Origin: Candidatus Heimdallarchaeota archaeon
GTDB taxonomy: Archaea > Asgardarchaeota > Heimdallarchaeia > Heimdallarchaeales > Heimdallarchaeaceae
DNA length: 19,180 bases
Reading direction: 5' to 3'
Assembly: GCA_021399395.1 (NCBI GenBank)
Contig: JAAFKJ010000059.1
Coordinates: 1 to 19,180 of the forward strand
Within the stretch, counting starts at the first letter, position 1. Each line of letters begins with the position of its first letter. The notes under the pieces were generated by a model. It was not told the DNA's origin. It ran no database searches and saw only the letters and a list, made by a program, of their open reading frames with translations. Below, piece after piece: positions 1,458 through 17,620 of this stretch. Position numbers and translations under genes: made by a program.

Positions 1458-2273
1458 ATGATTAATAATCATATTGAGAATCTTAGTAATTACTTTAAGA
1501 ACAAAAAAGTAGTAATCGCATATTCAGGAGGACTAGATAGCACAGTCTTACTGGAGTTTGCAATGCAGAATGCAAAAGAAGTTCATGCAATTACTGTCAA
1601 ATCTAGTCTTGTTCCACAAGATGAACAGGATTTTGCAGTAGAATATCTCGAAGCAAGGAATATTCAATTCAAAGTACTTCAACTTGATCCTCTACAGCAT
1701 CCTAAAGTTGTTAATAATGATGAAAGAAGGTGCTACTATTGTAAGAAACTGATTTTTGAAAGCATTATTGAAGAATCTAAGAACTTTAAACCAGATATTA
1801 TCATTGAAGGATCGAATACAACTGACTTATCTGATTACAGACCTGGTTTAGATGCTATCAAGGAGTTAAAAGTGAACAGCCCGTTTCTTGAATTTCAAAT
1901 TTCTAAAAGCGAGATCAGAGGATTAGCTCAAATCTTAAGTTTGGATATTGCTGAAAAACCAGCAACAACCTGCTTAGCAACAAGAATACCATATGGTCAT
2001 ATGATAACAGAAGGAAAACTAGAAAAAATCGAAGCAGCTGAAAAAATAATTAAGGATGCTATTCCAGTTTCTGTTTTACGAGTAAGGGACCATGGAGAAA
2101 TAGCTAGAATTGAGGTATCAGCTGAAGATTTTGAGAAATTTTTCGATATTCAGATTCGAAACTCCATCAAAGAAAACTTAAAAGAATTAGGATTTTCATA
2201 CATAACCCTTGACATCAGTGGTTACAAACAAGGGTCAATGAATATTAACATAGAAGGTGTTGAAAATAACTAA
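1458..2273 (+). CDS. larE: ATP-dependent sulfur transferase LarE (NPN cofactor synthesis)
   Basis: PP-loop IAYSGGLDST, RCYYCK, DLSDYRPG, CLATRIPYG and RVRDHGEIARIEV motifs; adjacent to larC and larB. Confidence 0.93.
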   Translation: MINNHIENLSNYFKNKKVVIAYSGGLDSTVLLEFAMQNAKEVHAITVKSSLVPQDEQDFAVEYLEARNIQFKVLQLDPLQHPKVVNNDERRCYYCKKLIFESIIEESKNFKPDIIIEGSNTTDLSDYRPGLDAIKELKVNSPFLEFQISKSEIRGLAQILSLDIAEKPATTCLATRIPYGHMITEGKLEKIEAAEKIIKDAIPVSVLRVRDHGEIARIEVSAEDFEKFFDIQIRNSIKENLKELGFSYITLDISGYKQGSMNINIEGVENN

Positions 2274-3501
2274 AGCGATTATTATAGATCCGAGAAATGC
2301 AGGTAGTTCAGGGGATATGTTTCTTTCAGTCTTTCTAGATTTGTTTGAAGATAAGAACTCATTGAATGAACTTGTAGAACTCATAAATAAGAAGTTCAAA
2401 GCAAATATGTCTGTTGATCCGCAGAAAATCAATAAGAAAAGTATTCATTCTACTCATCTTTCTATTTCTATAGAAAATGACATTGAAAAGAAACATGCAA
2501 AGGATCTAATGATTTATTGTAAGATGGTTTTAGAGGAACTAGAAATCTCTGATAAAGCTAAGAAATTAGCAGAAAAAATGCTTATGACTCTCTTTGAAGC
2601 TGAGTCTAAGGTTCATGGTGAGGACATTGAGGAACTTCACCTACATGAAACTGCTAGTTTAGACACAATATTGGATATCATAGGTACCGTTTTGCTATTA
2701 GAAAGGAATAACGCTCTTGAGCGAATATTCATAGGATTACCTGTTAATGTTGGAAGCGGATTTGTAACTTTTTCACACGGGAAAATGGCAGTACCTCCTC
2801 CAGCTGTTTTGGAGATTTTGAAAGCTAAAGAATATCCATTTTTCAGTGATGAAGTTGATGGAGAGTTACTAACTCCTACAGGAGCAGCGATATTAACTAA
2901 CCTAGTGACAAAGAAACTCCAATCATTGCCACCTGTTAAAATCGATAAAATAGGTTATGGTGCTGGGAACAAAGATTTAGAGAATAGATCTAATGTAATT
3001 AGAGTAATGAGCGCAGAATTTGAAGATGACAGTACTAAAAATTATCTTATGATGCTTGAAACTCATTTAGATGATGTAACTGGTGAATTACTAGGAGGGG
3101 TGATGAAGAAACTCTATGCTAATCATGCTCTCGATGTCTCATACTATTCTTTGTTTATGAAGAAAAATCGTCCAGCTTATGCACTTAGAGTTATTTGTGA
3201 TGAAGACAATTCATCTGAACTCGCTAAAATAATCATGCAAGAATTGGGAACTTTAGGAGTGAGAGAGAGTAGATTTGCTAGATACGAATTGGAGAGGAGA
3301 GTAATTACAAGAGAATTTTTCATTGAGAAAAAGAAATTCAAATGTAGATTCAAAGAAAGAATTCTTGATGGGAAAGTGATAGGTGCAAAACCTGAATTCG
3401 ATGATATGATTACTATCCATGAAGAAACAAATATTCCTTTAGTTGATTTAGAAAACAAACTTATCAACTTCTATAATATGGGAGATGAGTTTTGTGAGTA
3501 G
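2257..3501 (+). CDS. larC: Nickel insertase LarC (single ORF, both domains fused)
   Basis: AGSSGDM, AESKVHG, HLHE..SLDTILDI, HG..AVPPPA, GELLTPTGAA, GYGAG, ETHLDD, MKKNRP and TLGVR motifs. Exact start uncertain (GTG 2257, TTG 2260 or ATA 2266). Confidence 0.93.
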   Translation: MLKITKAIIIDPRNAGSSGDMFLSVFLDLFEDKNSLNELVELINKKFKANMSVDPQKINKKSIHSTHLSISIENDIEKKHAKDLMIYCKMVLEELEISDKAKKLAEKMLMTLFEAESKVHGEDIEELHLHETASLDTILDIIGTVLLLERNNALERIFIGLPVNVGSGFVTFSHGKMAVPPPAVLEILKAKEYPFFSDEVDGELLTPTGAAILTNLVTKKLQSLPPVKIDKIGYGAGNKDLENRSNVIRVMSAEFEDDSTKNYLMMLETHLDDVTGELLGGVMKKLYANHALDVSYYSLFMKKNRPAYALRVICDEDNSSELAKIIMQELGTLGVRESRFARYELERRVITREFFIEKKKFKCRFKERILDGKVIGAKPEFDDMITIHEETNIPLVDLENKLINFYNMGDEFCE

Positions 3502-4270
3502 AAGAGAAATTCTAGAAAGATTAGTTAATCAAGAAATTTCTTTGGAAGAAGCTGATAAAGCTCTTTCTTCAGTTCAAATCGAAGAAGTTAGTGAAATCGC
3601 AAATTATGACGTTTTTAGAGAGAGAAGAACTGGGATCCCTGAAGTAATTTTAGCTGAAACAAAGAGTCCTGAGATGGTTATTGAAATTGTAGAGAAAGTA
3701 CTCTCTAAGAAACCTATTGTGCTAGTATCTAGAACAAAAAATGAACATATTGAATTGATTAAGAATCTTGAGCAAGAATATGAAATTGAATATGGAACTA
3801 ACAATCATTTCTGTAGACTCAGACATAAAAATCACATTCTAAAAAAACATGAGGGGAGAATAGGTATTATTACAGCTGGCACTTCAGATCTACATATAGC
3901 AGAAGAAGCAAAAGCTATAGCTGAAATGATGGGATGTGAGGTTTATCTAATCAATGATGTAGGTGTTGCTGGAATTCATAGGCTCTTTCAACCCCTAAAG
4001 GAACTAATTGAGAAGGATGTTGACGTTTTAATTGTTGCAGCAGGTATGGAAGGAGCTCTACCAACCGTTATTGCCGGATTAGTTGATATCCCCATCATAG
4101 GATTACCTATCTCAACAGGATATGGATTTGGTGGAAAAGGCCAAACAGCTCTGATGAGTATGCTGCAAACATGCTCCCTAGGTGTAGCAGTTGTGAATAT
4201 AGATGCTGGTGTAAGTGCTGGTGCAGTAGCTGCTAAAATCGCATCTAGGAAATGTAAACATGAAGATTAA
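3485..4270 (+). CDS. larB: NaAD carboxylase/hydrolase LarB (PurE-like fold)
   Basis: RRTGIPEVI, AGTSD..IAEEA, DVGVAGIHRL, AGMEGALP, GYG and C..GVAVVNID motifs; overlaps the larC end by 17 nt. Confidence 0.94.
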   Translation: MSFVSRREILERLVNQEISLEEADKALSSVQIEEVSEIANYDVFRERRTGIPEVILAETKSPEMVIEIVEKVLSKKPIVLVSRTKNEHIELIKNLEQEYEIEYGTNNHFCRLRHKNHILKKHEGRIGIITAGTSDLHIAEEAKAIAEMMGCEVYLINDVGVAGIHRLFQPLKELIEKDVDVLIVAAGMEGALPTVIAGLVDIPIIGLPISTGYGFGGKGQTALMSMLQTCSLGVAVVNIDAGVSAGAVAAKIASRKCKHED

Positions 4271-4294: not shown

Positions 4295-5086
4295 ATGATA
4301 GTTGTTATTACAGGTAGTACTCAAGGTATTGGATTTGCTTTAGCAAAAGAGTTTCTAAGATATGGTGATGATATCGTAATCTCTTCTCGTAAAATCGACC
4401 GAGTAAATGATGTTGTTAAAGTACTAGAATCAGAATTTCCTGAATCCAAAATTCTAGGATTCAAATGTGATGTGACCCAACCAACAGATCTTGAAAATCT
4501 AGCAAAATCCACTGTTGATGCTTTAGGTGTTATTGATATATGGGTCAATAATGCTGGAACTAGTGGATTTGAATATCAACCACTACAAGACTGGGATGAT
4601 GGAACACTTAAGCAAATAATAGAAACTAACATGCTTGGAACATTATATGGTTCCAAAGAAGCTATCAAGGTTATGACTGAACAAAAGCATGGCAAAATCT
4701 TCAACCTAGCTGGTATGGGGTCTAACGGAATGGCATCACCTAATTTGGCAGCTTATGGAGCATCTAAGGGGTCAATTCCACAGTTAACAAAATCCCTTGC
4801 AGGGGAACTTAAAGGAACAGGAGTCTTGGTTAACCATGTTAGCCCAGGTATTGTACTAACAGATATGATTACAACTAATGTACCTCCACAAGCAGTTTCA
4901 ATCTTCAATATACTAGCAAGTAGACCTGAGAATGTTGCTAAGTTTCTAGTGAAAAAGATGAGAGCAGTAGAAAAAAGCAAAGCCAAAATTAATTACTTAA
5001 ATTCATTCAAAGCTTTCTGGAGATTTATGACCGCTGGTTTTAGAAAAGGAAAATATTTTGACGAGGAAGGAAATTTCAAAGGTTAA
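4295..5086 (+). CDS. Classical short-chain dehydrogenase/reductase, NOL/NYC1 (chlorophyll b reductase)-like subfamily
   Basis: TGSTQGIG, CDV, IDIWVNNAG, YGASK and SPGIVLTD motifs. FNLAGMGSNG and NILA..PE.VA recall plant NOL/NYC1. Confidence is for the SDR call; the subfamily is less certain. Confidence 0.9.
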   Translation: MIVVITGSTQGIGFALAKEFLRYGDDIVISSRKIDRVNDVVKVLESEFPESKILGFKCDVTQPTDLENLAKSTVDALGVIDIWVNNAGTSGFEYQPLQDWDDGTLKQIIETNMLGTLYGSKEAIKVMTEQKHGKIFNLAGMGSNGMASPNLAAYGASKGSIPQLTKSLAGELKGTGVLVNHVSPGIVLTDMITTNVPPQAVSIFNILASRPENVAKFLVKKMRAVEKSKAKINYLNSFKAFWRFMTAGFRKGKYFDEEGNFKG

Positions 5087-6726
5087 TCAAGATTTTCTTC
5101 TTCTGTCTGTGATACTAATTCTTGTTTTTTGAATAATCCCTTTATTCTGCGATAGAAGCTTATAGTGCTAGTTTTGATATATTTGAAAAATTCCTTGAAG
5201 TCCTCTTTGAGATTTTTATAATTCTCTTTTTTGAAAACAGCCTTGTAATATGAAACAGGAATTAATGGAGAAATCAGTATTACTACACCCAACAGGAATG
5301 CAGGATGCAGATATCGAATTGTAATCATAAGTGACCAGTTATATGCATATATTGCAGCAATTAAAACAAGCAATAATAGAATAGTAAGCGTAAGCCATAA
5401 AAATTGTTGGAACATAGTTTTGGAAGAAGTATTTACTTCTTCATTTGTACCTTTTTTTCTTCTTAGTAAACATGCTTGGAATTTATTAATAGAGTTGGTA
5501 ATGAGAATTACACTTGTAATTACGAGAAATGGGTTGAGAAAAGCATTATAGTATTTGTAGATCCCCCTTGAAATGAAAACGTGGACAATGAAAAAAATCC
5601 AAGTAATGTAATAGATAAAGGTGCTATCATCAGAGCTTAATTTCTTAGCGTTAAAGTGTCCTAGGAATAATCCGAAACCATAGAACAGAATGAAAGGGAG
5701 CATAGGTATGCTCACCCACATATAGAAATTAGCTAATCCTTCAGCTCCCCAATAAAGAATCGTATTCGCAAAAGTTACACCATGTTTTAAACTTGCAGCA
5801 GTATTATCTACATACCAGAGAGGCCTACCAGCTGCAAAGATTCTTCCTATGTAAAGATGTGGAGTAAGGAAAATCCAAGGTATCGAAAAGATCAGAAAAG
5901 ATACTAGAAATGGTCTCAAAAATTCCTTAAATGCTTTCTTGATATCATACTTTTTCCAGATATAAGAGAACAAAGGAATAAGCATAAACAAGGGCATCTG
6001 TTTTGTCAACCATGCTATGGTAAGAGAGTAAGCGGATAGTTTGTATTTCTTTTTCATGAATAAAAACAATGTTAGTAAGGTGAAGAATGTCATCTGAGGG
6101 ATGTTGAAATAATAAGCATCGACATATAGAAGATTAATAGGCATGAAAACATACGCTATTGCACCGATTAAACCAAGGATGTGTCTTTTCACTTTGGTAT
6201 CTTTTAGTGAAGAGAAATTGATGATGATGAGATAAATCATAACAGCTGAAAGTCCCTCAAAATTAACAGCAGTCCATTTAACAGCACTATTGACTAAAAA
6301 CGCTCTAGATGCTCCTGGATAAGATAGATTTAGAAGCAGAAAAGTAAAATATAATCCATAGATAAACATAGGTCCATAGAGATAATAATCCAATGGAGTA
6401 CCTTCGTATCTTCCATAAGGGTTCCACCAATCAATAAATGCATCTAAAAATTCAGTATAATAATAAGATGCGTCTCTGTAAACTTCAAAATACCAGGTAA
6501 CGGATTCATCCGATGGATTAGTCCATGTATAATCAAAGTATAACAAATCATCAAATGGACCAATATAACTTTGAATCCAACTAGCAATTTCTGTTGTGAA
6601 ATAGAGAGCAAAAATGAATAAAAGTGCTGAGAGAACAATTATAATTAGAATATTTGGGGTAAAAATACTTCTAATTTTACGAAACTTTTTTGGGAAAAGT
6701 TTCCTTTGTTTTCTCAAATTACTCAT
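5083..6726 (-). CDS. Polytopic membrane protein, probable GT-C fold glycosyltransferase (GT87 / GPI-mannosyltransferase-like)
   Basis: About 10-12 hydrophobic segments. A long first loop carries RDASYYY, WNPY and YLYGP, and a later LTKQMP motif is typical of GT87-like enzymes. ATG at 6726 preferred over TTG at 6735. Confidence 0.65.
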   Translation of the reverse strand: MSNLRKQRKLFPKKFRKIRSIFTPNILIIIVLSALLFIFALYFTTEIASWIQSYIGPFDDLLYFDYTWTNPSDESVTWYFEVYRDASYYYTEFLDAFIDWWNPYGRYEGTPLDYYLYGPMFIYGLYFTFLLLNLSYPGASRAFLVNSAVKWTAVNFEGLSAVMIYLIIINFSSLKDTKVKRHILGLIGAIAYVFMPINLLYVDAYYFNIPQMTFFTLLTLFLFMKKKYKLSAYSLTIAWLTKQMPLFMLIPLFSYIWKKYDIKKAFKEFLRPFLVSFLIFSIPWIFLTPHLYIGRIFAAGRPLWYVDNTAASLKHGVTFANTILYWGAEGLANFYMWVSIPMLPFILFYGFGLFLGHFNAKKLSSDDSTFIYYITWIFFIVHVFISRGIYKYYNAFLNPFLVITSVILITNSINKFQACLLRRKKGTNEEVNTSSKTMFQQFLWLTLTILLLLVLIAAIYAYNWSLMITIRYLHPAFLLGVVILISPLIPVSYYKAVFKKENYKNLKEDFKEFFKYIKTSTISFYRRIKGLFKKQELVSQTEEENLD

Positions 6727-6790
6727 TGAATTCAATATAAGAGAAATAATATCAGTTTTAAAGATTATTGAAGAATTTTAAGTCAAGGAA

Positions 6791-7419: not shown

Positions 7420-8310
7420 ATGAATGGACAAGGTTCAAAACAGAATATTGACGATTTAGTAAAGGAAGGTAGCTACCAATGGATATTGGATGAATTTCCT
7501 TTTGGTGTTTCAGTTCAAACTATAGATCGAGAAATACTCTATGAGAATGAAGCTGTAAAAGATTTAGTTGGGTCATATATTACCAGGCATTGCTTCAACA
7601 GATGGCATTATCTACCGGGTAAAGGGGATGAACCTTGCAATGACTGTCCAGCAACTATTGGTTTCAAAGATGGTAAATCACATAAAGTTTTTAGAAAAAC
7701 ACTAGGTCCTAATGGAGAAGATATTTTCATAGAAATACAATTCCTTCCAGTTAAAAATGAGAATCAAGAGATCGATAAATTCATAGAAATAATAACCAAT
7801 GTTAGTCTATTAGATAAAGCAAAAGTTCTTTCTAGTACACCTATAGAAGAAATAAGCCAATCCCTTCAAGTTTCATTTGTAAAGTTTGGTGAGACTGGCG
7901 GAGAAGTTATCTCTACTGACAATCTTGATTTTGCTAAAAGTGAAAATCTAGAAGAAATAGTTGTCCAATTAACAGTCTATATTTTCAGCGGAGTTATGCA
8001 AGGATTCGAGGATCAAGAAGGACTTTTTGGACCTTTTCCAGTTTTAGATAAGACAGAATATTTAATGGAAACTTATCTCTTCAGAATAAAAGATGATGAA
8101 GCTAAAGATCCGAGATTAAAAGGGATGCAACCTTCTATGATCTTATTCTTTTTCCCAAGAGAATATTATTTCTTATTTGAGAAAAGAAATGATATTGAAG
8201 AATTTATCTCACAAAAGATTACGGAGTGGGGGAAATTACAGAATATAACACAAGAGTCTCATAAAACCTTTGCAGAAGATATAAGGAATTTTCTTGAAAA
8301 ACTCATCTAA
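7420..8310 (+). CDS. PAS-domain protein (Cys-containing PAS) with an uncharacterised C-terminal domain
   Basis: ILDEFPFGVSVQTIDREILYENEA PAS start; HCF...PCNDCP Cys cluster; PVKNENQEIDKFIEIITNV PAC-like end. The C-terminal half (GLFGPFPV, KDPRL) shows no kinase, GGDEF or HTH motifs. Confidence 0.75.
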   Translation: MNGQGSKQNIDDLVKEGSYQWILDEFPFGVSVQTIDREILYENEAVKDLVGSYITRHCFNRWHYLPGKGDEPCNDCPATIGFKDGKSHKVFRKTLGPNGEDIFIEIQFLPVKNENQEIDKFIEIITNVSLLDKAKVLSSTPIEEISQSLQVSFVKFGETGGEVISTDNLDFAKSENLEEIVVQLTVYIFSGVMQGFEDQEGLFGPFPVLDKTEYLMETYLFRIKDDEAKDPRLKGMQPSMILFFFPREYYFLFEKRNDIEEFISQKITEWGKLQNITQESHKTFAEDIRNFLEKLI

Positions 8311-9317: not shown

Positions 9318-9326
9318 GTGATAAAT

Positions 9327-9569
9327 GTGTATTCAAGTATATTTCATCGTTTAAGGAAAATTATTGTAGAAGTAGCTAATGTCAAAAGATATGTTGTTAC
9401 ATTTAACACATATTTTGAAGATGAACTAAAAATGAATGAAGATGACTTAGTGGAGTTGCGAAAAAGAATAGAGAACGAATTTGATATCTCTCTCCCTAAA
9501 AACATCTTCAAAGAGTTCAATATTGTTGGAGAGATTGTAGGATTAGTTGAAGCTGAACTAGGCAGATGA
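9327..9569 (+). CDS. Acyl-carrier-protein-like small protein lacking the phosphopantetheine-accepting Ser
   Basis: Aligns without gaps by eye to bacterial AcpP, but LGADSLD reads LKMNEDD. GTG at 9327 is preceded by SD AGGTGAT (9316-9322); the ORF track start is 9318. Confidence 0.75.
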   Translation: MYSSIFHRLRKIIVEVANVKRYVVTFNTYFEDELKMNEDDLVELRKRIENEFDISLPKNIFKEFNIVGEIVGLVEAELGR

Positions 9570-9605: not shown

Positions 9606-10880
9606 TTAGAGGAGTTTTTCCCCTTCTTCTAAACTTAACATTGTAAAACCACTTATCATTTTTGGATAGAAATCTGTAGCTTTCTGAGGCATTCTTTCTC
9701 CATTCTTTGCAACTTTTAGAACTTGATCTGCACTTGTAGGATTGAGAATGAAAGCAGCTTGATAGGTTCCGTTATCAACTTCTTCTACAGCTTCTTGCCA
9801 CCATCTTTCATAGAAGATATCATCATCGATGTGTAACTCACCTAATTCCATTATACCATGGAAGATCATATCTCTGAGTATAACGACATCAAGAGCTTTG
9901 AAGTCATCACTTGCATCTCCAACATATCTGTTAATTGAAGAAGCATCCTTCAAGATTAAAGATGTAGCTCTTCCATCTTGGTAAAAGACAAAAGTATGTT
10001 TATCCTTATTCTCTTTAAGAAACTTAGGAATATCTGTTTTTAGAATTTCATTCATGTCAAAGAATACTTTGAGTTCATTCATTTTCTCTTCAGAAACTTT
10101 AACTTTAGCTAAACAGCGATGGGTAGCAAGAATAACTAGACCTTCATCTTCAACAGGAACAAGATAAGTCATTCTAAACTCAGGAACGTCATCCTCACTC
10201 CATGATCCAGCAGCACTACGTCTCATATCTCTATAGGTTACAGCTGTTTCATAACGATGGTGTCCATCAGCTATGACTAATTGTTGATCTTGGAATACAT
10301 CTTGTACAATCTTAATATGAACGCGGTCAGTAAGTTTCCAAATGCGATTAAGAACACCTAAATCATCTTTAGCATTAATCAAAGGTGGCTCTTGAGATAT
10401 CTCATCAAACAAGTTTATTGTCTTCTTATCAGGGTCAGAATAAAGTATAAATCCAGTTTCAAGAGTGTGCTTTGTTGTTTTGAGCATATTCAATCTATCT
10501 ATCTTTGGACCTTTGTGAGTCTTTTCATGAGGTAAAACTATCTTCTCGTTAAATGGATGTAATCGTAAAGCACCAATGAACCCTTTTCTGATATATTTGT
10601 TACCAAACAACTCATATTCTTGATAATATACATAAAGACCTGGAATTTCATCTTTTTCTAGAATTTTTTCTAGCAACCATTTTTCCAGACGTTGTTTAGC
10701 AACTTCATAACGGTTTTCTTCACTAGGTAATGTTAATCTACAATAATTGTAGTCTGATTGATCATAATATTTCAGTTGCATCTCTGCATCTATCTTATCA
10801 TAGGGTTGAACAATTAATTTTTCAATGTCCCCTGCTTTTTCTGTGTATCTAATAGCCTTAAATGGTCTGATATCTACCAT
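9606..10880 (-). CDS. DUF1015 family protein (ParB/Srx-like core)
   Basis: IRPFKAIRY, PYDKI, LPHEKT, IADGHHRYETA, THR and RMPQKATDFYPK motifs. ATG at 10880 preferred over TTG at 10889. Confidence 0.92.
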   Translation of the reverse strand: MVDIRPFKAIRYTEKAGDIEKLIVQPYDKIDAEMQLKYYDQSDYNYCRLTLPSEENRYEVAKQRLEKWLLEKILEKDEIPGLYVYYQEYELFGNKYIRKGFIGALRLHPFNEKIVLPHEKTHKGPKIDRLNMLKTTKHTLETGFILYSDPDKKTINLFDEISQEPPLINAKDDLGVLNRIWKLTDRVHIKIVQDVFQDQQLVIADGHHRYETAVTYRDMRRSAAGSWSEDDVPEFRMTYLVPVEDEGLVILATHRCLAKVKVSEEKMNELKVFFDMNEILKTDIPKFLKENKDKHTFVFYQDGRATSLILKDASSINRYVGDASDDFKALDVVILRDMIFHGIMELGELHIDDDIFYERWWQEAVEEVDNGTYQAAFILNPTSADQVLKVAKNGERMPQKATDFYPKMISGFTMLSLEEGEKLL

Positions 10881-10987
10881 TGTAATCAAACTAGCTCAAC
10901 AAGAACTCTATTTTAATTTATTTATTAGAATATGTTTTACAAAATGCTCATTTTTTTCATATATGTTATTTTGCACAATAAGAAGTT

Positions 10988-11030
10988 ACGATATACCATG
11001 ATAGAACGATATACCAGAACAACGATATAT
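10988..11030 (+). repeat. Three direct repeats ACGATATA(CCA) in the DUF1015/actin divergent intergenic region
   Basis: ACGATATACCA at 10988-10998 and 11006-11016; ACGATATAT at 11022-11030. Start-to-start spacings are 18 and 16 nt. Confidence 0.8.
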
Positions 11031-11042
11031 CTTCATAAATCC

Positions 11043-11050
11043 TTATTAAT
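11043..11050 (+). promoter_or_regulatory. Candidate TATA box of the actin-like gene
   Basis: TTATTAAT lies 25-32 nt upstream of ATG 11075 and directly downstream of the repeats. Confidence 0.45.
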
Positions 11051-11074
11051 TTGGAAAAATAATATTATTTGAAA

Positions 11075-12538
11075 ATGACATCAGATAATTCAAAGTCTAA
11101 ACCAAGACATTGTGGAAAAATTATGCATCGTCTTTATATCCGTAAAGGCACAGAGAAGAGAAAATGGATAGCTGTAGGCTATTATTGTGATGAATGTTCT
11201 GAAATGCTTAAAGAATATGATTTGAAGAAGATGGTGACTATTCATGAATTTCCAACTGATGCTTTCAATCTAGTTGATAGAATAACCAATCCACAAAGTC
11301 TAGTCTTGGATCCAGGTTTTTCGCTTACTAAAGTTGGTTTTACTGGTGAGAAGATTCCAAGATTCATTTTTGATTCTGTTGTTTATTATAATGAGTCAGG
11401 AGAGTCGTTTATTCAACTAGCAGAAAAAACTGAAACTACTGTTAAGATAAAGAAGAAACACAGAATATTTAATATTGTAGAAAATAGAGAGGAATTGAAT
11501 AAGGACGTTTTTGAAATATTTCTCACGCACATATTTGAAAAACTCAAAGTCAAATCTTCGAAAACAGCTGTTTGGGTTATCGAAAAATATCATAATGCAA
11601 ATTATTCTGATTTCCTAAAAGGCAGATTGGATGTAATAAATAATAGTTCTTTACCTGAAAAAGCTAAACAGCATCTCAGGAAAGAGAAAAAAACCGAGTA
11701 TGTCAATGGTTTTGAAACAGCATCCTCAAACCGAAGAGCTATGGCTGAAGTCTTCTTTAATGTTTTCAAAACCCCTAAAGTATATTTCTCTGTAGGTGAG
11801 TTACTCTCACTTTATGCAGATAATCAAGTGACAGGAGTGGTTGTTGGAATTGGTGCTAATTCAACAAGAATAGTACCAATTTATGAGGGATTTATTATTT
11901 CTCATGGTTTAAGTATTCGTGAAAGAGGAGGGGTGGATGTTGTTAATCAAGTTAAAGAGTTTATCACTAAAGTCGGATTAAAAACCCCCAAATCATATCA
12001 TGTAGATTATCAAGTTCAAAAAAACACTCGATTAGCTTCAGAAGAATTTTGCTATATTGCAGATGATGTTAAATGTGAAATGAAGAAACGTAAAGAATCT
12101 GATAAGTATGCAAGATCAGTTAATGTTGTTCATGATATTCACATCAAACTAGATGAAATTCGATACCTTGCACCAGAGATTCTCTTCGAAAATGAACCTC
12201 TTAGTATCTTGAACAAGCCTGGAGACCTTGCTGATGCTGTTATTGAATCTATTCAGAAGTGTGATAAGGGATTAGCTAAGAGTCTATATTCTAACATCTT
12301 GCTAGTGGGTGGGGGGACATTGTATGAGGGTTTTAGTAAGAGATTTTATCAAGATCTTAAATCGAAGATTCCTGACAATATAGTATTCAATGCAACAGCA
12401 AAACCTGACAGATTAATTTCAGCATGGATAGGAGGATCAATTCTATCAGGTATGAAACTATTTGAGGAGAGGAAATTCTGGGTTTCTAAAGCTGAATATG
12501 AAGATAAGGGGTCATCAGCTGTAGATAGATGTATTTGA
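11075..12538 (+). CDS. Divergent eukaryote-type actin-family protein with an N-terminal zinc-ribbon-like domain
   Basis: LVLDPG...KVGFTGEKIPR, LLSLYA..TGVVV, VPIYEGF, RYLAPEILF, LYSNILLVGGGTLYEG, SAWIGGSILS and WVSKAEYEDKGSSAVDRCI all parallel actin motifs. The N-terminus carries HCG...YYCDEC. ATG 11075 preferred over TTG 11069. Confidence 0.93.
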   Translation: MTSDNSKSKPRHCGKIMHRLYIRKGTEKRKWIAVGYYCDECSEMLKEYDLKKMVTIHEFPTDAFNLVDRITNPQSLVLDPGFSLTKVGFTGEKIPRFIFDSVVYYNESGESFIQLAEKTETTVKIKKKHRIFNIVENREELNKDVFEIFLTHIFEKLKVKSSKTAVWVIEKYHNANYSDFLKGRLDVINNSSLPEKAKQHLRKEKKTEYVNGFETASSNRRAMAEVFFNVFKTPKVYFSVGELLSLYADNQVTGVVVGIGANSTRIVPIYEGFIISHGLSIRERGGVDVVNQVKEFITKVGLKTPKSYHVDYQVQKNTRLASEEFCYIADDVKCEMKKRKESDKYARSVNVVHDIHIKLDEIRYLAPEILFENEPLSILNKPGDLADAVIESIQKCDKGLAKSLYSNILLVGGGTLYEGFSKRFYQDLKSKIPDNIVFNATAKPDRLISAWIGGSILSGMKLFEERKFWVSKAEYEDKGSSAVDRCI

Positions 12539-12545
12539 TATGAGG

Positions 12546-13598
12546 TTATTTCAAACCCCATATTTCTTTTGTTTTTCTTTCTAAATCCTCTAAACCTTCA
12601 AATGAAGGCTTTTTCTTTCCTTCTTCGATTTCATGAACAGTTTCCAGAAGATATTTGTTCAAAGGAGTGTCTATACCTAATCTTTTTCCTTCTTGAACTA
12701 GATAACCATTAAGATAATCTATTTCAGATTTTCTTCCCCACTCAATTGATTGAAGACTTGAGGATTTCAGGTTCTTATATTTCCTACCAATAATTTTGAT
12801 GATAGACTGTTTAAAGAAATAGCTAAATGAGAAACCATGAAGCTCTTTTTTACTAATTGCTAAAGAGTAAAAACTCAAATTGTTAAGTTTCTGCAATTTG
12901 ATATTCTTAGCATTAGCTACTTGAATTCCTTCGGTGATTATGGTTAAGAAAGCGATTCTAGTTATCTTCCTTTGAAGCATTGCACCTAATGTCATACCAC
13001 TTATTACTCCAAAAGAAGCCACAGATAAGTTAATCAGAAGTTTTGAAAACTTGTCGTTCAAAATGTTGTTAGACCATTTTGTTGGGACTGTAAAAGACAG
13101 CTTTTCAATGATTTCGTCATCATTTTTCTGTTTCTGACCATCCATTCGTCCATAAACCATCTCACCTAGTGATGTTTTATTGGATTCAGCTGGACCTTTT
13201 TTTGATGCACCAAAGCTAACAACACAACCAACAAGATTTTCAGGATTTAGGCTTTCACTTAATTTCTCTTCTATCATACCATTAGTCATTGTAACAAGAG
13301 TGAAATCTTTACTTAGTTTTGGTTTGATTCTCTTTAATGCATCTTCTAGATGGTTAAGTTTTGTTACTATGAAAACCAAATCCAGATCATCAGGTAAGTC
13401 TTCAATTTGTAAAACAGGAGTAAGATTTTCTTTTACTATATATTCTCCGCTAATCCCTGTAACTTTCAAACCGCGTGATCTTACAAGATCCAATACTTCT
13501 TGATGTTTACATACAACATACAAAGGAAAATCATTTTTAGCTAAATCTGCAGCTATTACAGTTCCTATTGCTCCTAAACCGATTAATGCACTTTTCAT
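12546..13598 (-). CDS. panE: 2-dehydropantoate 2-reductase (ketopantoate reductase family)
   Basis: GLGAIG Rossmann motif, VTK, TNG, SKLLIN and SSLQ...GRKSEIDYLNGYLV...G..TPLN. True substrate not established. Confidence 0.85.
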   Translation of the reverse strand: MKSALIGLGAIGTVIAADLAKNDFPLYVVCKHQEVLDLVRSRGLKVTGISGEYIVKENLTPVLQIEDLPDDLDLVFIVTKLNHLEDALKRIKPKLSKDFTLVTMTNGMIEEKLSESLNPENLVGCVVSFGASKKGPAESNKTSLGEMVYGRMDGQKQKNDDEIIEKLSFTVPTKWSNNILNDKFSKLLINLSVASFGVISGMTLGAMLQRKITRIAFLTIITEGIQVANAKNIKLQKLNNLSFYSLAISKKELHGFSFSYFFKQSIIKIIGRKYKNLKSSSLQSIEWGRKSEIDYLNGYLVQEGKRLGIDTPLNKYLLETVHEIEEGKKKPSFEGLEDLERKTKEIWGLK

Positions 13599-13638
13599 TG
13601 AAATTAGGATAAGTTGGTTAATATTAAAATTTTCTACG

Positions 13639-13658
13639 AAAAAGAAAGAAGAAAAAAA
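13639..13658 (-). terminator. Archaeal oligo-T terminator after serA
   Basis: The minus strand reads TTTTTTTCTTCTTTCTTTTT immediately after the serA stop. Confidence 0.6.
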
Positions 13659-13660
13659 GG

Positions 13661-14584
13661 TTAGAGTTCTTTGAAAGCTTCAATTACTCTTTCTGCAGCT
13701 TGAACACTTGCTCTCATATTTCCTTCAGCTGTTTGAGCTCCTATATGAGGACTGATGATTACATGTTCATGCTTCAAAAGAGGATTATCTGCAGCTGGAG
13801 GTTCTTTTTCAAAAACATCAGTACAGTAATGACCTAACTGTCCAGATTGAAGAGCTTCAAAGGCTTCCTCTTCATTTACAATTCCACCTCTAGCACAGTT
13901 GATAAGAACTGTTCCTGGTTTCATCAAAGCGAATTGATCCTTACCGATCATATGTTTGGTTTCACTAGTAAGAGGTAGATGTAAACTGATATAGTCTGCA
14001 TTTTTGAGAATTTCTTCCATTGATCCCTTCATATCAATCACAGGATTTTCTGGAGCGAATTTATCGTATCCAATTGCACCCATTCCGAGAGCTTTACATT
14101 TAACTGCAAGACTTGTACCTATTCTTCCTGTACCAATTAGACCAAGTGTTTTTCCATCGATCTCTCTTGAGAACAACTCTTTCTTCATAGTTTTGTATGA
14201 TTCTGGATTTCCTTTAATTTCGCATGTACCTTTAACAACATCTCTTGTTGAAGCTAGAACCATTGTAAGAGCTAGCTCAGCTACAGAATTTGTTGTTGCT
14301 GCTGGTGTATTAACTACTTTAATACCGCGTTGCATAGTTGTTTCAAGATCAATGTTATCAAGACCGACTCCAGCTCTACCAATCACCTTGAGATTTACTG
14401 CTTTTTCAAGAAGTAATCCACGAACTTTGGTTGCTGAACGTACGATGATTGCGTCATAATCTGCTATAATGTGAGGTAGTTCTTCTTTGGGCAAATCCCA
14501 TGCAACATTTACTTCGAATCCTGCATCTTTTAAAACTTCAACTGCTTTTTCATTTAGTTTATCTGATAGAATTATTTTTGGCAT
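13661..14584 (-). CDS. serA: D-3-phosphoglycerate dehydrogenase (short form without ACT domain) / D-2-hydroxyacid dehydrogenase
   Basis: IVRSATKV, GRAGVGLDNID, GTGRIG, LHLPLT, NCARGG, DVFEKEP and PHIGAQT motifs. SD AGGTGA precedes ATG 14584. Coupled to the upstream aminotransferase. Confidence 0.85.
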   Translation of the reverse strand: MPKIILSDKLNEKAVEVLKDAGFEVNVAWDLPKEELPHIIADYDAIIVRSATKVRGLLLEKAVNLKVIGRAGVGLDNIDLETTMQRGIKVVNTPAATTNSVAELALTMVLASTRDVVKGTCEIKGNPESYKTMKKELFSREIDGKTLGLIGTGRIGTSLAVKCKALGMGAIGYDKFAPENPVIDMKGSMEEILKNADYISLHLPLTSETKHMIGKDQFALMKPGTVLINCARGGIVNEEEAFEALQSGQLGHYCTDVFEKEPPAADNPLLKHEHVIISPHIGAQTAEGNMRASVQAAERVIEAFKEL

Positions 14585-14593
14585 TTTTTTCAC

Positions 14594-15670
14594 CTATAGT
14601 TCCCAAATTTCTTCAATAGCTGCCAGTAGTTCTTTTAATCCTTCTAGAGTATGATCACCCATATGACCAATTCTAAAAGTGAGTCCTTTCAGCTTACCAT
14701 AACCATTGGCAATGACGAACCCTTTTTCAGCTAATTTTTTATTAAGATCTCCAACATCCTTCTCCAATTTGTTCTCAACAGTTGTTACAGTTACAGATTT
14801 GTATCCATCTTCTGCAAAGAGGCCAAAACCATGCTTTAGTGCCCATTCATGGGTGTAATCTGCCATCGCTTTATGTCTCTTATAGATATTTTCAGCTCCT
14901 TCTACTAACATCTGTTTGAGTTTATAGTCAAATGCAAATAGAAGAGAGATATTTGGAGTTGAAGGAGTCTGTTTCTTCTTTCCATAGTAATCTAACAGTT
15001 TTTCAAGATTGATGTAAGTCCCTTTGTTGGGAACATCTCGAGTTCTATCGTAAGCTGCTTGAGATACTATTACAACTGAGAGTCCAGGAGGTAAAGCAAA
15101 ACATTTCTGTGTGGAAGCAAAAACCAAATCTGTTCCCCATACATCTGGAAGCAATAAATCTCCACCCATGGAAGAAACTGCGTCAACAACCAGCAAAGTT
15201 TCAGGATAATTCTTTAACAAACTACCAACTGCTTCAAGATCAGCTTTTACACCTGTACTGGTTTCATTATAACATATAGTTACAATATCGTAATCAGATT
15301 CATCTAGTTTTTCTTTTATTAACTCTGGTTTGATAGCTTTACCCCATTCCACATCTAGTCTATCTGTTTCTATTCCACTATCAACAAGAGTATCATACAT
15401 CCTTGATGAGAAGGAACCATTGATACATGCTAGAGCTTTCTTACCTGGTCGGACAAGATTTCTAGCAGCTATATCCATGAAGATAGTACCAGAAGCGGTG
15501 TGAACTAAAACATGTTGTTCAGTTTTGAAAAACTTGCGTAATTGTGTTAAAACACTGTCATAAAGTAAAGTAAAATCATTACTTCTGTGACCAAACAAAG
15601 GTTTAGCTTGTGCTTTTAAAACATCATCTTCAACCTCAGTAGGTCCGGGTATCCATAATTTCTTGTGCAT
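14594..15670 (-). CDS. Class V PLP aminotransferase (alanine-glyoxylate / serine-pyruvate / archaeal phosphoserine aminotransferase family)
   Basis: IPGPT, HRS, NETSTGV, VDAVSS, STQKCFALPPG (PLP Lys), TPSTP and FRIGHMG motifs; SD AAGGTGAT upstream. Confidence 0.93.
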   Translation of the reverse strand: MHKKLWIPGPTEVEDDVLKAQAKPLFGHRSNDFTLLYDSVLTQLRKFFKTEQHVLVHTASGTIFMDIAARNLVRPGKKALACINGSFSSRMYDTLVDSGIETDRLDVEWGKAIKPELIKEKLDESDYDIVTICYNETSTGVKADLEAVGSLLKNYPETLLVVDAVSSMGGDLLLPDVWGTDLVFASTQKCFALPPGLSVVIVSQAAYDRTRDVPNKGTYINLEKLLDYYGKKKQTPSTPNISLLFAFDYKLKQMLVEGAENIYKRHKAMADYTHEWALKHGFGLFAEDGYKSVTVTTVENKLEKDVGDLNKKLAEKGFVIANGYGKLKGLTFRIGHMGDHTLEGLKELLAAIEEIWEL

Positions 15671-15973
15671 TCAAATCACCTTAATTATCACGCTGATTCA
15701 GTTTATTCTATAAAATAAAGGTTATTGTCTCACCCATAATTTTCAAAGCTAATAAACAGATGTTACCAATAAAGAGATGAATAACAATCTATTAGGAGAC
15801 CAACAACTAAGATTTTTTGAAAAAATATTGAATGTATTTATAAATGGAAGAATAATACAACGATAAAAAACGCTTAAAATACAATTTTCTGAAACTAGAA
15901 GCCCTTTTAATCGCTTTTGTATTGTGAATGTTATGGTAAGGTTTTTTTACTCAAGTTTAGAATAATGTGATTG

Positions 15974-17620
15974 ATGGCTATACCAGATAAAGATAAACAG
16001 AAGTCAGAACTTGAAAAGACAATGCAGAAATTTTCAGATTTACTGCCTTCTGTTAAACCAGAAGTTGATCCTGCTGAAAAAGCGCTAGTAGTAATAGATG
16101 GAACAGCTAAGTCTAAAGCAGCGGTTCTAGTTGCAGGAGAGCTAAATAGACATTTTGGTACAAAAATAGATGTAATTTGTTTCTATACTGAACAACCACC
16201 CGCCAAAACAGAAGCATCCAAAGAGAGTTATGAGAGTTCATTGTCCTTTGCATATGAACATCTTAAAAGTAAGGATTTTGAGATTAAGGGTGAGGTTGTT
16301 GAAAATATAGATAATCTGAAATCTATTCTAGATAATGTAATTCAAAGTGTAGAATATGATATAATTTTGGTACCATCTTCATTTATAGGATTGAAAGAAA
16401 CTAAAATCCAAAAAGATGATGAGGAAGATGAAGAAGCAAGCATAACAGTATTAGGAGATGTATTCGAATACTTGCTTGAAGAAATCAAAAATATTCCAGT
16501 TCTACTAATAGAAAGTGAGAAAATCAATTTAGAGCTTCTTTGGAAGAACATTCCAATTGTTTTCAGCAATACAAACCAACTCAGCTATTTGTTTGAGAAA
16601 GCAATGAAATATAGTCTAAAGAAATCTGAAATTCATCTTCTAATAAATATCAATCCAATCTTCCATGAGGACAAAAATCAAGAAGAATTGGATGCACTAA
16701 TAAATAGAAGTATTGAAGATTTGGAGATATTTGAAAAAGCCAATTCACAGGTATTTAAAGAATCTTCCAGATATGTTGATACACACCTTCTATCTACAGA
16801 TAATTTTGAAAATTTCAAGAAAGAATTATATACTTTTGGAAAAGATGTTGGAATTCTAATTGTTTACATGACTTCAAAACATTCCAGTCTTTATGGATTC
16901 TTTACTGAACTTCTTGAAGATAGTGAAATCACTTTTCCGATCCTCATAGCTAAAAGAAAAATTGAGACTAAGAAAGAGGAAGTTGAACAACCAGAGGAAG
17001 AGGGAGCAGAAGATGAACCTTCTAAGGATGAAGTGGAAGAAGAAGTAGAAGTCAAAGAAGAAGAAAAGGAAGAAGAAAAAATAGTGATAGATGAATCCTT
17101 AAAAGAAGAAATAAAAGAAGAAGTCAAGAAAGATATTCTAGGAATTACTGAACCTTCTGAAGAAGTGGAAGAGGAAACTGTGGAAGAAGAAACTGTGATA
17201 GAAAAAGCTATAAAAACTAAAATAGAAGAAATTAGTAAAGAGGAGGAAGAGGAAATGTCAGAGATTGATGAAATAAAAGAAGAAGTCATAGAAGAGGTTA
17301 TTGAAGAGATCAAAAAAGAAGTCATTGAAGAAGTCAAAGATGAACCTAAGAAAGAGATCAAAAAAGAGGTCACAAAAGAGCTCAACAAAGAAGAAAGTAT
17401 TGAGGAATTAAAAGAATCTATTCTTGAAGAAATCAAGGAAGAAATCATAGAGGAAATCAAATACGAACTCAAGAAAGACCTCAAAGAACCCAAGAAAGAA
17501 CTCAAAGAAAAAGTCATTGAGGAAATGAAAGAAGAAGCTGAGGAAGCTGAAGAAAAGCCCTCTGATGAAGAAGAAGAAGAAGAGGAAGAAGAAGTTACAT
17601 CAAGAATGGACTTCGAATAA
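15974..17620 (+). CDS. Protein with two divergent universal-stress-protein (USP)-like domains and a ~220-aa Glu/Lys-rich tail
   Basis: ALVVIDGTAKSKAAV...G..IDVI, YDIILVPS and LGDVFEYLL...IPVLLI match the USP pattern. A second, weaker repeat runs from WKNIPIV to FPILIAK, followed by a low-complexity acidic C-terminus. Confidence 0.7.
   Translation: MAIPDKDKQKSELEKTMQKFSDLLPSVKPEVDPAEKALVVIDGTAKSKAAVLVAGELNRHFGTKIDVICFYTEQPPAKTEASKESYESSLSFAYEHLKSKDFEIKGEVVENIDNLKSILDNVIQSVEYDIILVPSSFIGLKETKIQKDDEEDEEASITVLGDVFEYLLEEIKNIPVLLIESEKINLELLWKNIPIVFSNTNQLSYLFEKAMKYSLKKSEIHLLININPIFHEDKNQEELDALINRSIEDLEIFEKANSQVFKESSRYVDTHLLSTDNFENFKKELYTFGKDVGILIVYMTSKHSSLYGFFTELLEDSEITFPILIAKRKIETKKEEVEQPEEEGAEDEPSKDEVEEEVEVKEEEKEEEKIVIDESLKEEIKEEVKKDILGITEPSEEVEEETVEEETVIEKAIKTKIEEISKEEEEEMSEIDEIKEEVIEEVIEEIKKEVIEEVKDEPKKEIKKEVTKELNKEESIEELKESILEEIKEEIIEEIKYELKKDLKEPKKELKEKVIEEMKEEAEEAEEKPSDEEEEEEEEEVTSRMDFE
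16952..17617 (+). repeat. Low-complexity GAA-rich coding repeat (E-[IVL]-[KI]-[EK] tetrads and poly-Glu)
   Basis: For example EIKEEVIEEVIEEIKKEVIEEVKDEPKKEIKKEVTKE and ELKESILEEIKEEIIEEIKYELKKDLKE. Confidence 0.85.

Follow-up and report, generated by a model that had tools for sequence, protein, structure and literature searches.

A gene in a stretch of 19,180 nucleotides from contig JAAFKJ010000059.1 of Candidatus Heimdallarchaeota archaeon (the whole stretch is called the window here) encodes an actin-related protein (ARP) whose nucleotide site departs from that of actin in a manner common to its whole clade. It is a real, conserved and functionally constrained ARP variant, with a mechanism that we infer. 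On balance, and with slightly more confidence than doubt, the protein is read as a lineage-specific ARP of one Heimdallarchaeial order that would have been converted from a polymerising ATPase to a tethered actin-fold adaptor, and it probably still binds nucleotide without hydrolysing it and without forming polymers. A sequence-only reading of the window had pointed to rewired positions between 11309 and 11869, which correspond to codon D81 to codon R267 of the open reading frame (ORF) at 11069..12538 on the forward strand. The emphasis has since shifted from an odd ATPase to a tethered actin-fold adaptor because an N-terminal head, an insert, the loss of pointed-end and lateral surfaces and an array of upstream boxes were found. 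The gene and the parts of its nucleotide site are located as follows.

11069..12538, forward strand: coding sequence of the ARP, 489 residues if started at TTG 11069; the likelier start is ATG 11075, which gives 487 residues
11309..11332, forward strand: phosphate-1 loop DPGFSLTK (D81 to K88), with D11, G13 and K18 kept and S14 and G15 lost
11783..11818, forward strand: hinge helix YFSVGELLSLYA (Y239 to A250), with Q137 replaced by G243 and A138 by E244
11846..11869, forward strand: phosphate-2 loop GIGANSTR (G260 to R267), with D154, D157 and G158 lost and H161 replaced by R267
12041..12043, forward strand: E325, the equivalent of actin E214, invariant in the clade alignment
12302..12331, forward strand: adenosine loop LVGGGTLYEG (residues 412 to 421), kept according to the clade alignment

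The 487-residue form is also that of a database copy (P0002). Pfam Actin (PF00022) was matched by residues 76–487 with 201 bits (E 3.1e-59, cut-off 27 bits) and by all 36 clade members. The best solved relative by sequence was PDB 9wc4 ('HC1 actin', E 7.9e-48 with phmmer against the PDB), for which only residues 75–108 and 219–487 were aligned. Two further actin genes lie on contigs C48 and C37 of the source assembly (2.8 Mb, 201 contigs, 82% complete) and reached 448 and 437.5 bits on Pfam Actin versus 196.8 for the ARP. Both carry the canonical DNGTG, MQA and DSGDGVTH/DAGDGVIH motifs with every catalytic residue present, and the ARP is the third, strongly altered actin copy of this genome.

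The nucleotide site was compared between a clade alignment of 36 relatives (A1) and a canonical alignment of 23 Asgard actins that includes the two own copies of the source genome (A2). Column counts in the clade refer to 35 sequences, with a 33%-identical outlier (P0040) left out, and residues are numbered as in rabbit actin, anchored on an own actin (D16=D11, H80=H73, Q144=Q137). In phmmer alignments to PDB actins, DPGFSLTK pairs with DNGSGMCK/DNGTGLSK, SVGELLSLYA with AIQAVLSLYA/SMQAVLSLYA, and GIGANSTRIVPIYEG with DSGDGVTHVVPIYEG. Profile–profile alignment (hhalign) of A1 with A2 gave a probability of 100 and an E value of 1.4e-78 and left the register unchanged around all three motifs; therefore, the canonical residues are not restorable by structural re-alignment, an outcome that the sequence-only reading had allowed for. 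The substitutions it had listed were borne out by the HMMER and profile–profile alignments alike, namely S14F and G15S in the phosphate-1 loop, Q137G with a Glu one position later, D154G, D157A, G158N and H161R in the phosphate-2 loop, and the loss of the H73 sensor. Since the column counts show these substitutions clade-wide, the pattern is a family property and not chance or a sequencing error.

Within the phosphate-1 loop, D11 and G13 are present in 35/35 clade members and K18 in 34/35 (23/23 canonical actins for each), G15 is found in 0/35 versus 23/23, and the S14 column is variable in the clade and T or S in canonical actins. H73 is likewise absent from all 35 members and present in all 23 canonical sequences. 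The Q137 column holds Gln in a single clade member (G20 K10 E4 Q1) versus 23/23, and the neighbouring A138 column is Glu in 34/35 members and Ala in 23/23 canonical actins. At D154 the clade has Asn, Gly, Ser or His (N25 G5 S4 H1) and never the Asp of the 23 canonical sequences; D157 (19/23 canonical) and G158 (23/23) also drop to 0/35, G156 is kept throughout (35/35 and 23/23), and the H161 column is Arg in 35/35 members versus His in 23/23. Q137, D154 and H161 form the canonical catalytic and metal-coordinating set of actin. K213, K336, R177 and R183 are lost as well, with I, V, F and similar residues in the R177 column, which is Arg in 23/23 canonical actins. The loop tips (S14, G15 and D157 to V159) are free to vary within the clade.

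Retention of the adenosine motif, also claimed earlier, agrees with the counts: G301 and G302 are found in 35/35 clade members and 23/23 canonical actins, as is E214, a ribose contact of actin whose equivalent here is E325, and the Y306 column is Tyr in 31/35 members (F 21, Y 2 in canonical actins). R210 also belongs to the residues kept in 31–35 of 35. Over 26 nucleotide-contact columns, the mean majority frequency was 0.71 versus a background of 0.61, a value reached by 198 of 10,000 random column sets. These results bear on a nucleotide-free pseudo-ATPase, in which salt bridges between E244 and R267 (together with K243 in some members) would shut the cleft and the 'adenosine' residues would serve fold stability. 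Such a protein would explain the replacement of both Gly15 and Gly158 and the loss of the acidic metal ligands D154 and D157 in every member, along with the loss of K213, K336, R177 and R183 and the more basic set of pocket residues. It is considered rather unlikely, however, as the conservation of E214, G301, G302, Y306 and R210 at 31–35/35 and of D11 and K18 at 34–35/35 exceeds what fold stability would lead one to expect, and the nucleotide-contact columns are conserved above background.

The fixation of E244 and R267 across the clade points to a rebuilt site rather than one in simple decay. This is suggested because the adenosine and phosphate anchors are kept, the clamp tips vary, and the water-activating and metal-binding residues are replaced by a fixed Glu/Arg pair. 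The sequence-only reading had proposed a hydrolysis-dead scaffold or nucleotide sensor. In its favour, the whole clade lacks the catalytic set and the clamp glycines, selection on the gene is purifying and the adenosine pocket has been preserved; 'dead' itself is a term that these residues suggest rather than demonstrate. A second suggestion, that the shifted Glu might substitute as in MreB and Hsp70, is not borne out as an equivalence of position. In MreB, Hsp70 and ParM, the catalytic Glu occupies the column equivalent to actin Q137, whereas the near-invariant Glu of the ARP (34/35) lies one residue past this column and the Q137 column itself varies.

An AlphaFold2 (AF2) model of the protein built on A1 was confident, with a predicted local distance difference test (pLDDT) score of 87.2 and a predicted template modelling (pTM) score of 0.82. 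The best 50 rows listed by Foldseek were all actin entries (TMt 0.83–0.89). A VIA-align structure search, which covered 48,161 representative chains, placed actin first (Z 38.6; root mean square deviation 2.3 over 338 residues, 30% identity), followed by a flagellar actin-like chain (Z 36.2), Arp3 (34.9), the dynactin chain 5adx_J (34.8), Arp4 (32.2), Arp7/9 (32.1), chains of the Arp5/Arp6 type (30.7), crenactin (28.3), Arp8 (27.3), MreB (24.9), Hsp70s (at most 23.3) and ParMs (16–20). Because actin leads this ranking and MreB, Hsp70 and ParM come at its end, the protein as modelled belongs to the actin/ARP group of eukaryotic type, with actin itself as the nearest structure.

Divergence is spread unevenly over this fold. 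Consensus identity between the clade and canonical actin amounts to 45% in subdomain 1, 43% in subdomain 3, 26% in subdomain 4 and 10% in subdomain 2. Within the boundaries used for the surface regions, 19 of 25 positions in the barbed-face groove are identical to canonical actin; identity falls to 1/13 in the D-loop, from which six columns are deleted, to 2/13 in the plug, 1/16 at the tip of subdomain 4 and 3/15 on the lateral surface. At the level of sequence, the pointed-end and lateral contacts needed for F-actin are lost.

It would also be conceivable that the protein is still an ATPase with re-invented chemistry, with E244 as general base, R267 stabilising the gamma-phosphate and N260 and D81 holding the metal; such an enzyme may assemble in a new manner through the D-loop replacement and the 41-residue insert described below. 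This possibility is judged unlikely. It is favoured by the fixation of E244 (34/35) and R267 (35/35), by the retention of D11, G13, K18, G156, E214, G301 and G302, by purifying selection on the gene, by the conservation within the clade of the stretch that takes the place of the D-loop, and by the use of a Glu near the Q137 position in other actin-fold ATPases. Against these points, the Glu misses the catalytic column by one residue and the column itself varies, neither clamp glycine is kept and the tips of the loops vary freely, unlike in an active phosphate clamp, and the pointed-end and lateral F-actin contacts are lost.

In addition to the altered actin body, the ARP carries parts that actin lacks, as the first 75 residues are an N-terminal extension and a further segment is inserted in subdomain 1.

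11093..11212, forward strand: basic zinc-ribbon-like head (residues 9 to 48; KPRHCGK..M..YIRKGTEKRKW..GYYCDEC), with invariant residues and AF2 hairpins
11213..11293, forward strand: helix and low-confidence linker from the head to the actin fold (residues 49 to 75), poorly conserved in sequence and of low pLDDT
11603..11725, forward strand: 41-residue insert in subdomain 1 (about residues 179 to 219) with the motif LKGRxDVINNSTLPExAK, a 41-column gap versus canonical actins in hhalign

In the head, H14, C15, M19, Y23, R25, K26, G27, T28, R31, W33, G37, C40 and C43 are invariant in 16/16 loci (alignment A3, in which residue 1 equals ORF residue 9). Modelled alone by AF2, it was predicted to form beta-hairpins with a pLDDT of 84–89 over residues 1–40; in the full model, residues 54–63 of the linker have a pLDDT below 50. 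As to a zinc ribbon, H14-C15 and C40-x-x-C43 are invariant and hairpins are predicted, although an H-C pair stands in the first knuckle in place of C-x-x-C; the head is called zinc-ribbon-like here, with putative zinc binding. No Pfam family was matched by the head at E up to 10, and the other clade members likewise had no head match. With Foldseek no match at E ≤0.001 was obtained (best E 0.41), and no usable match was found in the Atlas. The weak structural neighbours were zinc-ribbon domains of large serine recombinases, MqsA and ZifS (Foldseek E at least 0.41; VIA Z at most 3.1). Among proteins of 37–119 residues there was no stand-alone homologue of the head, with two fragments as the only returns, and no second copy of the head was found elsewhere in the source genome.

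The insert is well conserved and well modelled, with G185, L195, P196, K200 and L203 at 90% or more and a pLDDT of 73–95. The outlier P0040, a database protein of 500 residues, has the same H-C...C-x-x-C head, a different site pattern (G13 replaced by E, Q137 by E, D154 by I, G156 by S and G302 by S, with H161 kept) and two longer inserts. In the ESM Atlas, two Asgard clusters named actin-related (65 and 79 members, about 500 residues) carry DZR and Zn_ribbon_3 domains in 57–80% of members. These domains were matched by 0/36 members of the present clade, and the Atlas clusters were not located among the strongest matches listed in the phylum-wide Pfam Actin scan. They represent a zinc-ribbon–ARP family different from the present clade, and fusions of zinc ribbons to ARPs may recur in Asgard archaea. 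Database matches of about 480–560 residues were considered as similar architectures and rejected, since they are conventional actins or ARPs of protists whose N-terminal extensions are unrelated.

Immediately upstream of the gene lies a short array of repeated boxes, followed by a putative promoter element.

10988..10999, forward strand: 12-bp near-palindromic box 1, ACGATATACCAT
11006..11017, forward strand: 12-bp near-palindromic box 2, ACGATATACCAG, starting 18 bp after box 1
11022..11033, forward strand: 12-bp near-palindromic box 3, ACGATATATCTT, starting 16 bp after box 2
11043..11050, forward strand: TATA-box-like element TTATTAAT, which follows box 3 by about 10 bp and precedes the start codons by about 25 bp

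The element at 11043..11050 may serve as an archaeal TATA box, and a TTTAWTAA-like element likewise follows the end of the array by about 10 bp in the orthologue loci. The 10-mer ACGATATAYC occurs seven times in the genome, three of them in this array, and the paired pattern GRTATAYC-N6-12-GRTATAYC was found only here in the 2.8-Mb assembly, with no match to the reversed control. The same array was present upstream of 15/15 orthologues examined (16/16 loci with the window). A strict pattern counted 48 boxes over the 16 loci, with the consensus A-T/C-G-A-T-A-T-A-C/T-C-A-T, and the first box reads ATGATATACCAT in 11 of them. The array follows the gene into two other neighbourhoods (three loci, genera g10 and g2). 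At the g10 loci L024 and L028, two or three boxes lie upstream of the TATA-like element and one after it, and an exact ATGATATACCAT overlaps the ATG start. Five other gene-bearing genomes contain the paired pattern only at the gene (six of six with the source genome). Among five gene-less genomes, it is absent from three, intragenic in G011, and present in G009 at a deletion scar and in two intragenic places; the pairs away from the locus in G009 and G011 lie inside ORFs and were rejected as real elements, being taken as chance. Because the array accompanies the gene across loci and neighbourhoods, it is the ARP gene's own cis-element.

From this arrangement, it might be supposed that the protein acts chiefly in DNA binding and self-regulation, with a head that recognises the boxes of its own gene and an actin fold that serves as an oligomerisation or sensor module. 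The array is found with the gene in 16/16 loci, three of which have a different neighbourhood, paired boxes occur only at the gene in 6/6 gene-bearing genomes, and the boxes of g10 that extend past the TATA-like element and over the start codon have an operator-like layout. Moreover, the head is basic, family-specific and absent elsewhere in the genome, and among the structures that it weakly resembles are the zinc-ribbon domains with which large serine recombinases bind DNA. Nevertheless, a gene and its own promoter elements co-occur whoever binds them, the structural matches are insignificant (Z ≤3.1), and a target confined to the own gene leaves the conserved barbed-face groove unexplained; this explanation is accordingly regarded as improbable. 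A wider link between DNA and the Asgard actin cytoskeleton, in which the head would bind the boxes and perhaps other DNA, the nucleotide-locked body would attach through its barbed face to the pointed end of Lokiactin filaments and the protein would limit its own synthesis through the operator array, is a speculation of low probability.

The adaptor reading favoured here would combine these parts as follows. The actin body would bind an adenine nucleotide, which would serve as structural cofactor or for sensing state, with very slow or no hydrolysis, and the fixed E244/R267 pair would stand in for the water-activating pair Q137/H161. Homopolymers like F-actin would not be formed. The retained barbed face might dock a partner, either the pointed end or D-loop of the organism's own Lokiactin-type actin or a regulator that binds the groove, and the basic head might anchor the complex on some polyanion, possibly DNA. 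Expression would be under the control of the three near-palindromic boxes that immediately precede the promoter.

Several points weigh against this adaptor. Nucleotide binding, absent hydrolysis and absent polymerisation are all deduced from conserved and replaced residues. The non-Gly residues at G15 and G158 are often bulky (K, Y, L, F, R) and might exclude the beta- and gamma-phosphates, so that a bound triphosphate is disfavoured. D11, K18 and G156 are kept together with a fixed Glu and Arg in the catalytic pocket, and an alternative active site would look alike. Clade members agree with one another in the stretch that stands in for the D-loop (majority frequency 0.82), and a new self-contact is possible. 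The head has no significant structural or family match, which leaves its zinc binding and target putative. Finally, no adjoining partner gene is conserved, and contexts vary between genera.

The clade is narrowly distributed. In a word-indexed database it comprised about 37 clusters, mostly of 471–519 residues and 40–100% identity, separated from canonical actins by a clear gap from 388 bits down to 191 bits or less. An exhaustive search of 1.84 billion representatives returned only P0025 (724 bits), P0038 (643 bits) and fragments before a drop to 329 bits, from where downward the matches were multi-stretch ones of 600–900 residues. The fungal P0039 and P0041, which ranked above Asgard actins in the word-indexed database, were considered as a signal of ARP affinity and rejected because they are tandem double actins. 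Among 400 Asgard genomes, 21 were matched at E ≤1e-58, the source genome counted (family f1 19/30, family f2 1/1, all others 0), and the clade is thus confined to two families of one order. Relatives that bear names are annotated Heimdallarchaeota or Heimdallarchaeaceae.

Within the window's own genus, the gene is present in 17 of 24 genomes. In three of the seven gene-less genomes (G009, G010 and G021), the flanking DUF1015 and ApbA genes are assembled side by side without it. G009 retains a deletion scar, where all three upstream boxes are left together with the final 14 codons and the stop; at this locus (L031, G009:C159, 3916–4141), located between ApbA and DUF1015, the intact boxes run into EYNEKGSTAVD-stop-CI-stop. 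The ratio of nonsynonymous to synonymous substitution rates (dN/dS) was 0.13–0.20 in nine orthologue pairs, with locus L016 left out since its tblastn range took in an upstream stop. The gene is dispensable, having been deleted in some close relatives, though it is under purifying selection.

A decaying pseudogene or an assembly or annotation artefact might be suspected from the loss of the gene in several close relatives and from a fragment with in-frame stops in G016. Yet intact frames of 471–519 residues occur in more than 30 database clusters, and low dN/dS, new invariant residues and a confident fold were found, so that such an origin is practically dismissed; for the window copy it is refuted by the intact relatives, the dN/dS values and the confident fold. 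The G016 fragment (G016:C389:5070-5675) contains two in-frame TAA codons and may itself be a pseudogene or an assembly error.

In trees, the clade was placed on its own long stem outside 18 canonical Asgard actins. As the approximately unbiased (AU) test did not reject a union with the family's own canonical actins (log-likelihood difference 0.57, p 0.484), an old origin and a lineage-specific duplication followed by fast divergence are equally likely; the narrow distribution speaks for the latter.

With conventional and Asgard actins of the Lokiactin type, the ARP shares the Pfam family, the four-subdomain fold, the barbed-face groove, the adenosine loop and the C-terminal ...RCI, at about 30% identity overall and 36% over the C-terminal 270 residues. 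It differs from them by substitution of the catalytic residues, the clamp glycines and the H73 sensor, by a D-loop, plug and lateral contacts that are no longer those of actin, and by the added head and linker of 75 residues and the 41-residue insert. The nuclear ARPs Arp4, Arp8 and Arp7/Arp9 have weak or no ATPase activity. They resemble the present protein in that their actin fold bears insertions and is extended at the N terminus, in their degenerate hydrolysis site, in a presumed non-polymerising use as scaffold and in a possible link to DNA. However, there is no evidence for orthology, the structure of the ARP is nearer to actin (Z 38.6 vs 27.3–32.2), and no HSA-helix partner or remodeller is encoded near the window gene. 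To our knowledge, a zinc-ribbon-like head module does not occur in Arp4, Arp8 or Arp7/Arp9. As regards orthology to any of Arp1 to Arp11, the clade stands on its own stem in the trees and its Z scores to all solved ARPs lie below that to actin.

Arp10/Arp11 is the pointed-end capping ARP of dynactin, and chain J of 5adx is presumably Arp11. A kept barbed face and a diverged pointed face, with a Z score of 34.8, are common to both and would be the layout expected of a pointed-end docker that stops growth; the ARP differs in having no dynactin-like partners and in being no closer to Arp10/Arp11 in sequence than to other ARPs. The ParM/ParR/parC system also couples an actin-fold gene to a short array of DNA repeats immediately upstream. 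There, the repeats are bound by a separate adaptor, and polymerisation and ATP hydrolysis are the work of the actin-like protein, whereas the ARP has no adaptor gene or plasmid context and has lost the residues for polymerisation and hydrolysis; the structural similarity to ParM is also low (Z 16–20).

Asgardactins have been divided into five clades (Da Cunha et al. 2022, PMC8850707), and three extra actin homologues were reported in 'Ca. L. ossiferum' (PMC9834061). Extra divergent paralogues beside a conserved Lokiactin are thus a shared feature, although neither a zinc-ribbon head nor a rewired site is mentioned in the accessible parts of these two papers. A 2026 preprint (10.64898/2026.10.28.762692) mentions Asgard proteins that cluster structurally with INO80 ARPs. 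No description of a zinc-ribbon-headed, catalytically rewired Heimdallarchaeial ARP was found in a literature search from which subscription-only papers and closed supplements were excluded.

If the adaptor reading is right, actin would have been converted independently in an archaeon, by loss of the ATPase and polymer contacts, retention of a docking face and addition of a targeting module. As a natural experiment, the clade would then show which residues of the nucleotide site are still required by an actin fold once hydrolysis is gone, and the protein would be a candidate regulator or anchor of Lokiactin filaments. It is small and should express easily, and the compact conserved cis-element array is one whose binder is directly identifiable. 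If the link between DNA and actin were true, the protein would be the archaeal equivalent, in a single polypeptide, of actin-like partition systems bound to centromeres or of nuclear ARPs bound to chromatin; as no more than an accessory scaffold of one lineage, it would matter within a single archaeal order.

The surroundings of the gene contain no evident functional partner; the neighbours form a metabolic block in genus g1 and are other genes in g10 and g2. Within the window, which has a G+C content of about 33%, this block (9606–15670) consists of a divergent DUF1015 gene, the ARP gene, ApbA, a 2-hydroxyacid dehydrogenase and a class-V aminotransferase. It is conserved at loci L016–L023, L025–L027 and L030 (12 loci, genus g1), as judged from ORF lengths and the conserved DUF1015 start, with Pfam run on the window alone. 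The divergent DUF1015 gene is immediately preceded by a conserved CTCTATTTTAATTT element (about 10900–10925), which recurs at this position in 12 orthologue loci and is probably the promoter of that gene. No Pfam family was matched at E ≤0.001 by the window ORFs at 5083–6735 on the reverse strand (550 residues) and at 7420–8310, 9318–9569 and 15971–17620 on the forward strand (296, 83 and 549 residues). Further upstream, adjacent forward-strand genes with Pfam PP-loop/QueC-like (1458–2273), Ni_insertion (2257–3501) and AIRC (3485–4270) domains form a trio at 1458–4270 that we take to resemble the LarE/LarC/LarB set for the nickel-pincer cofactor.

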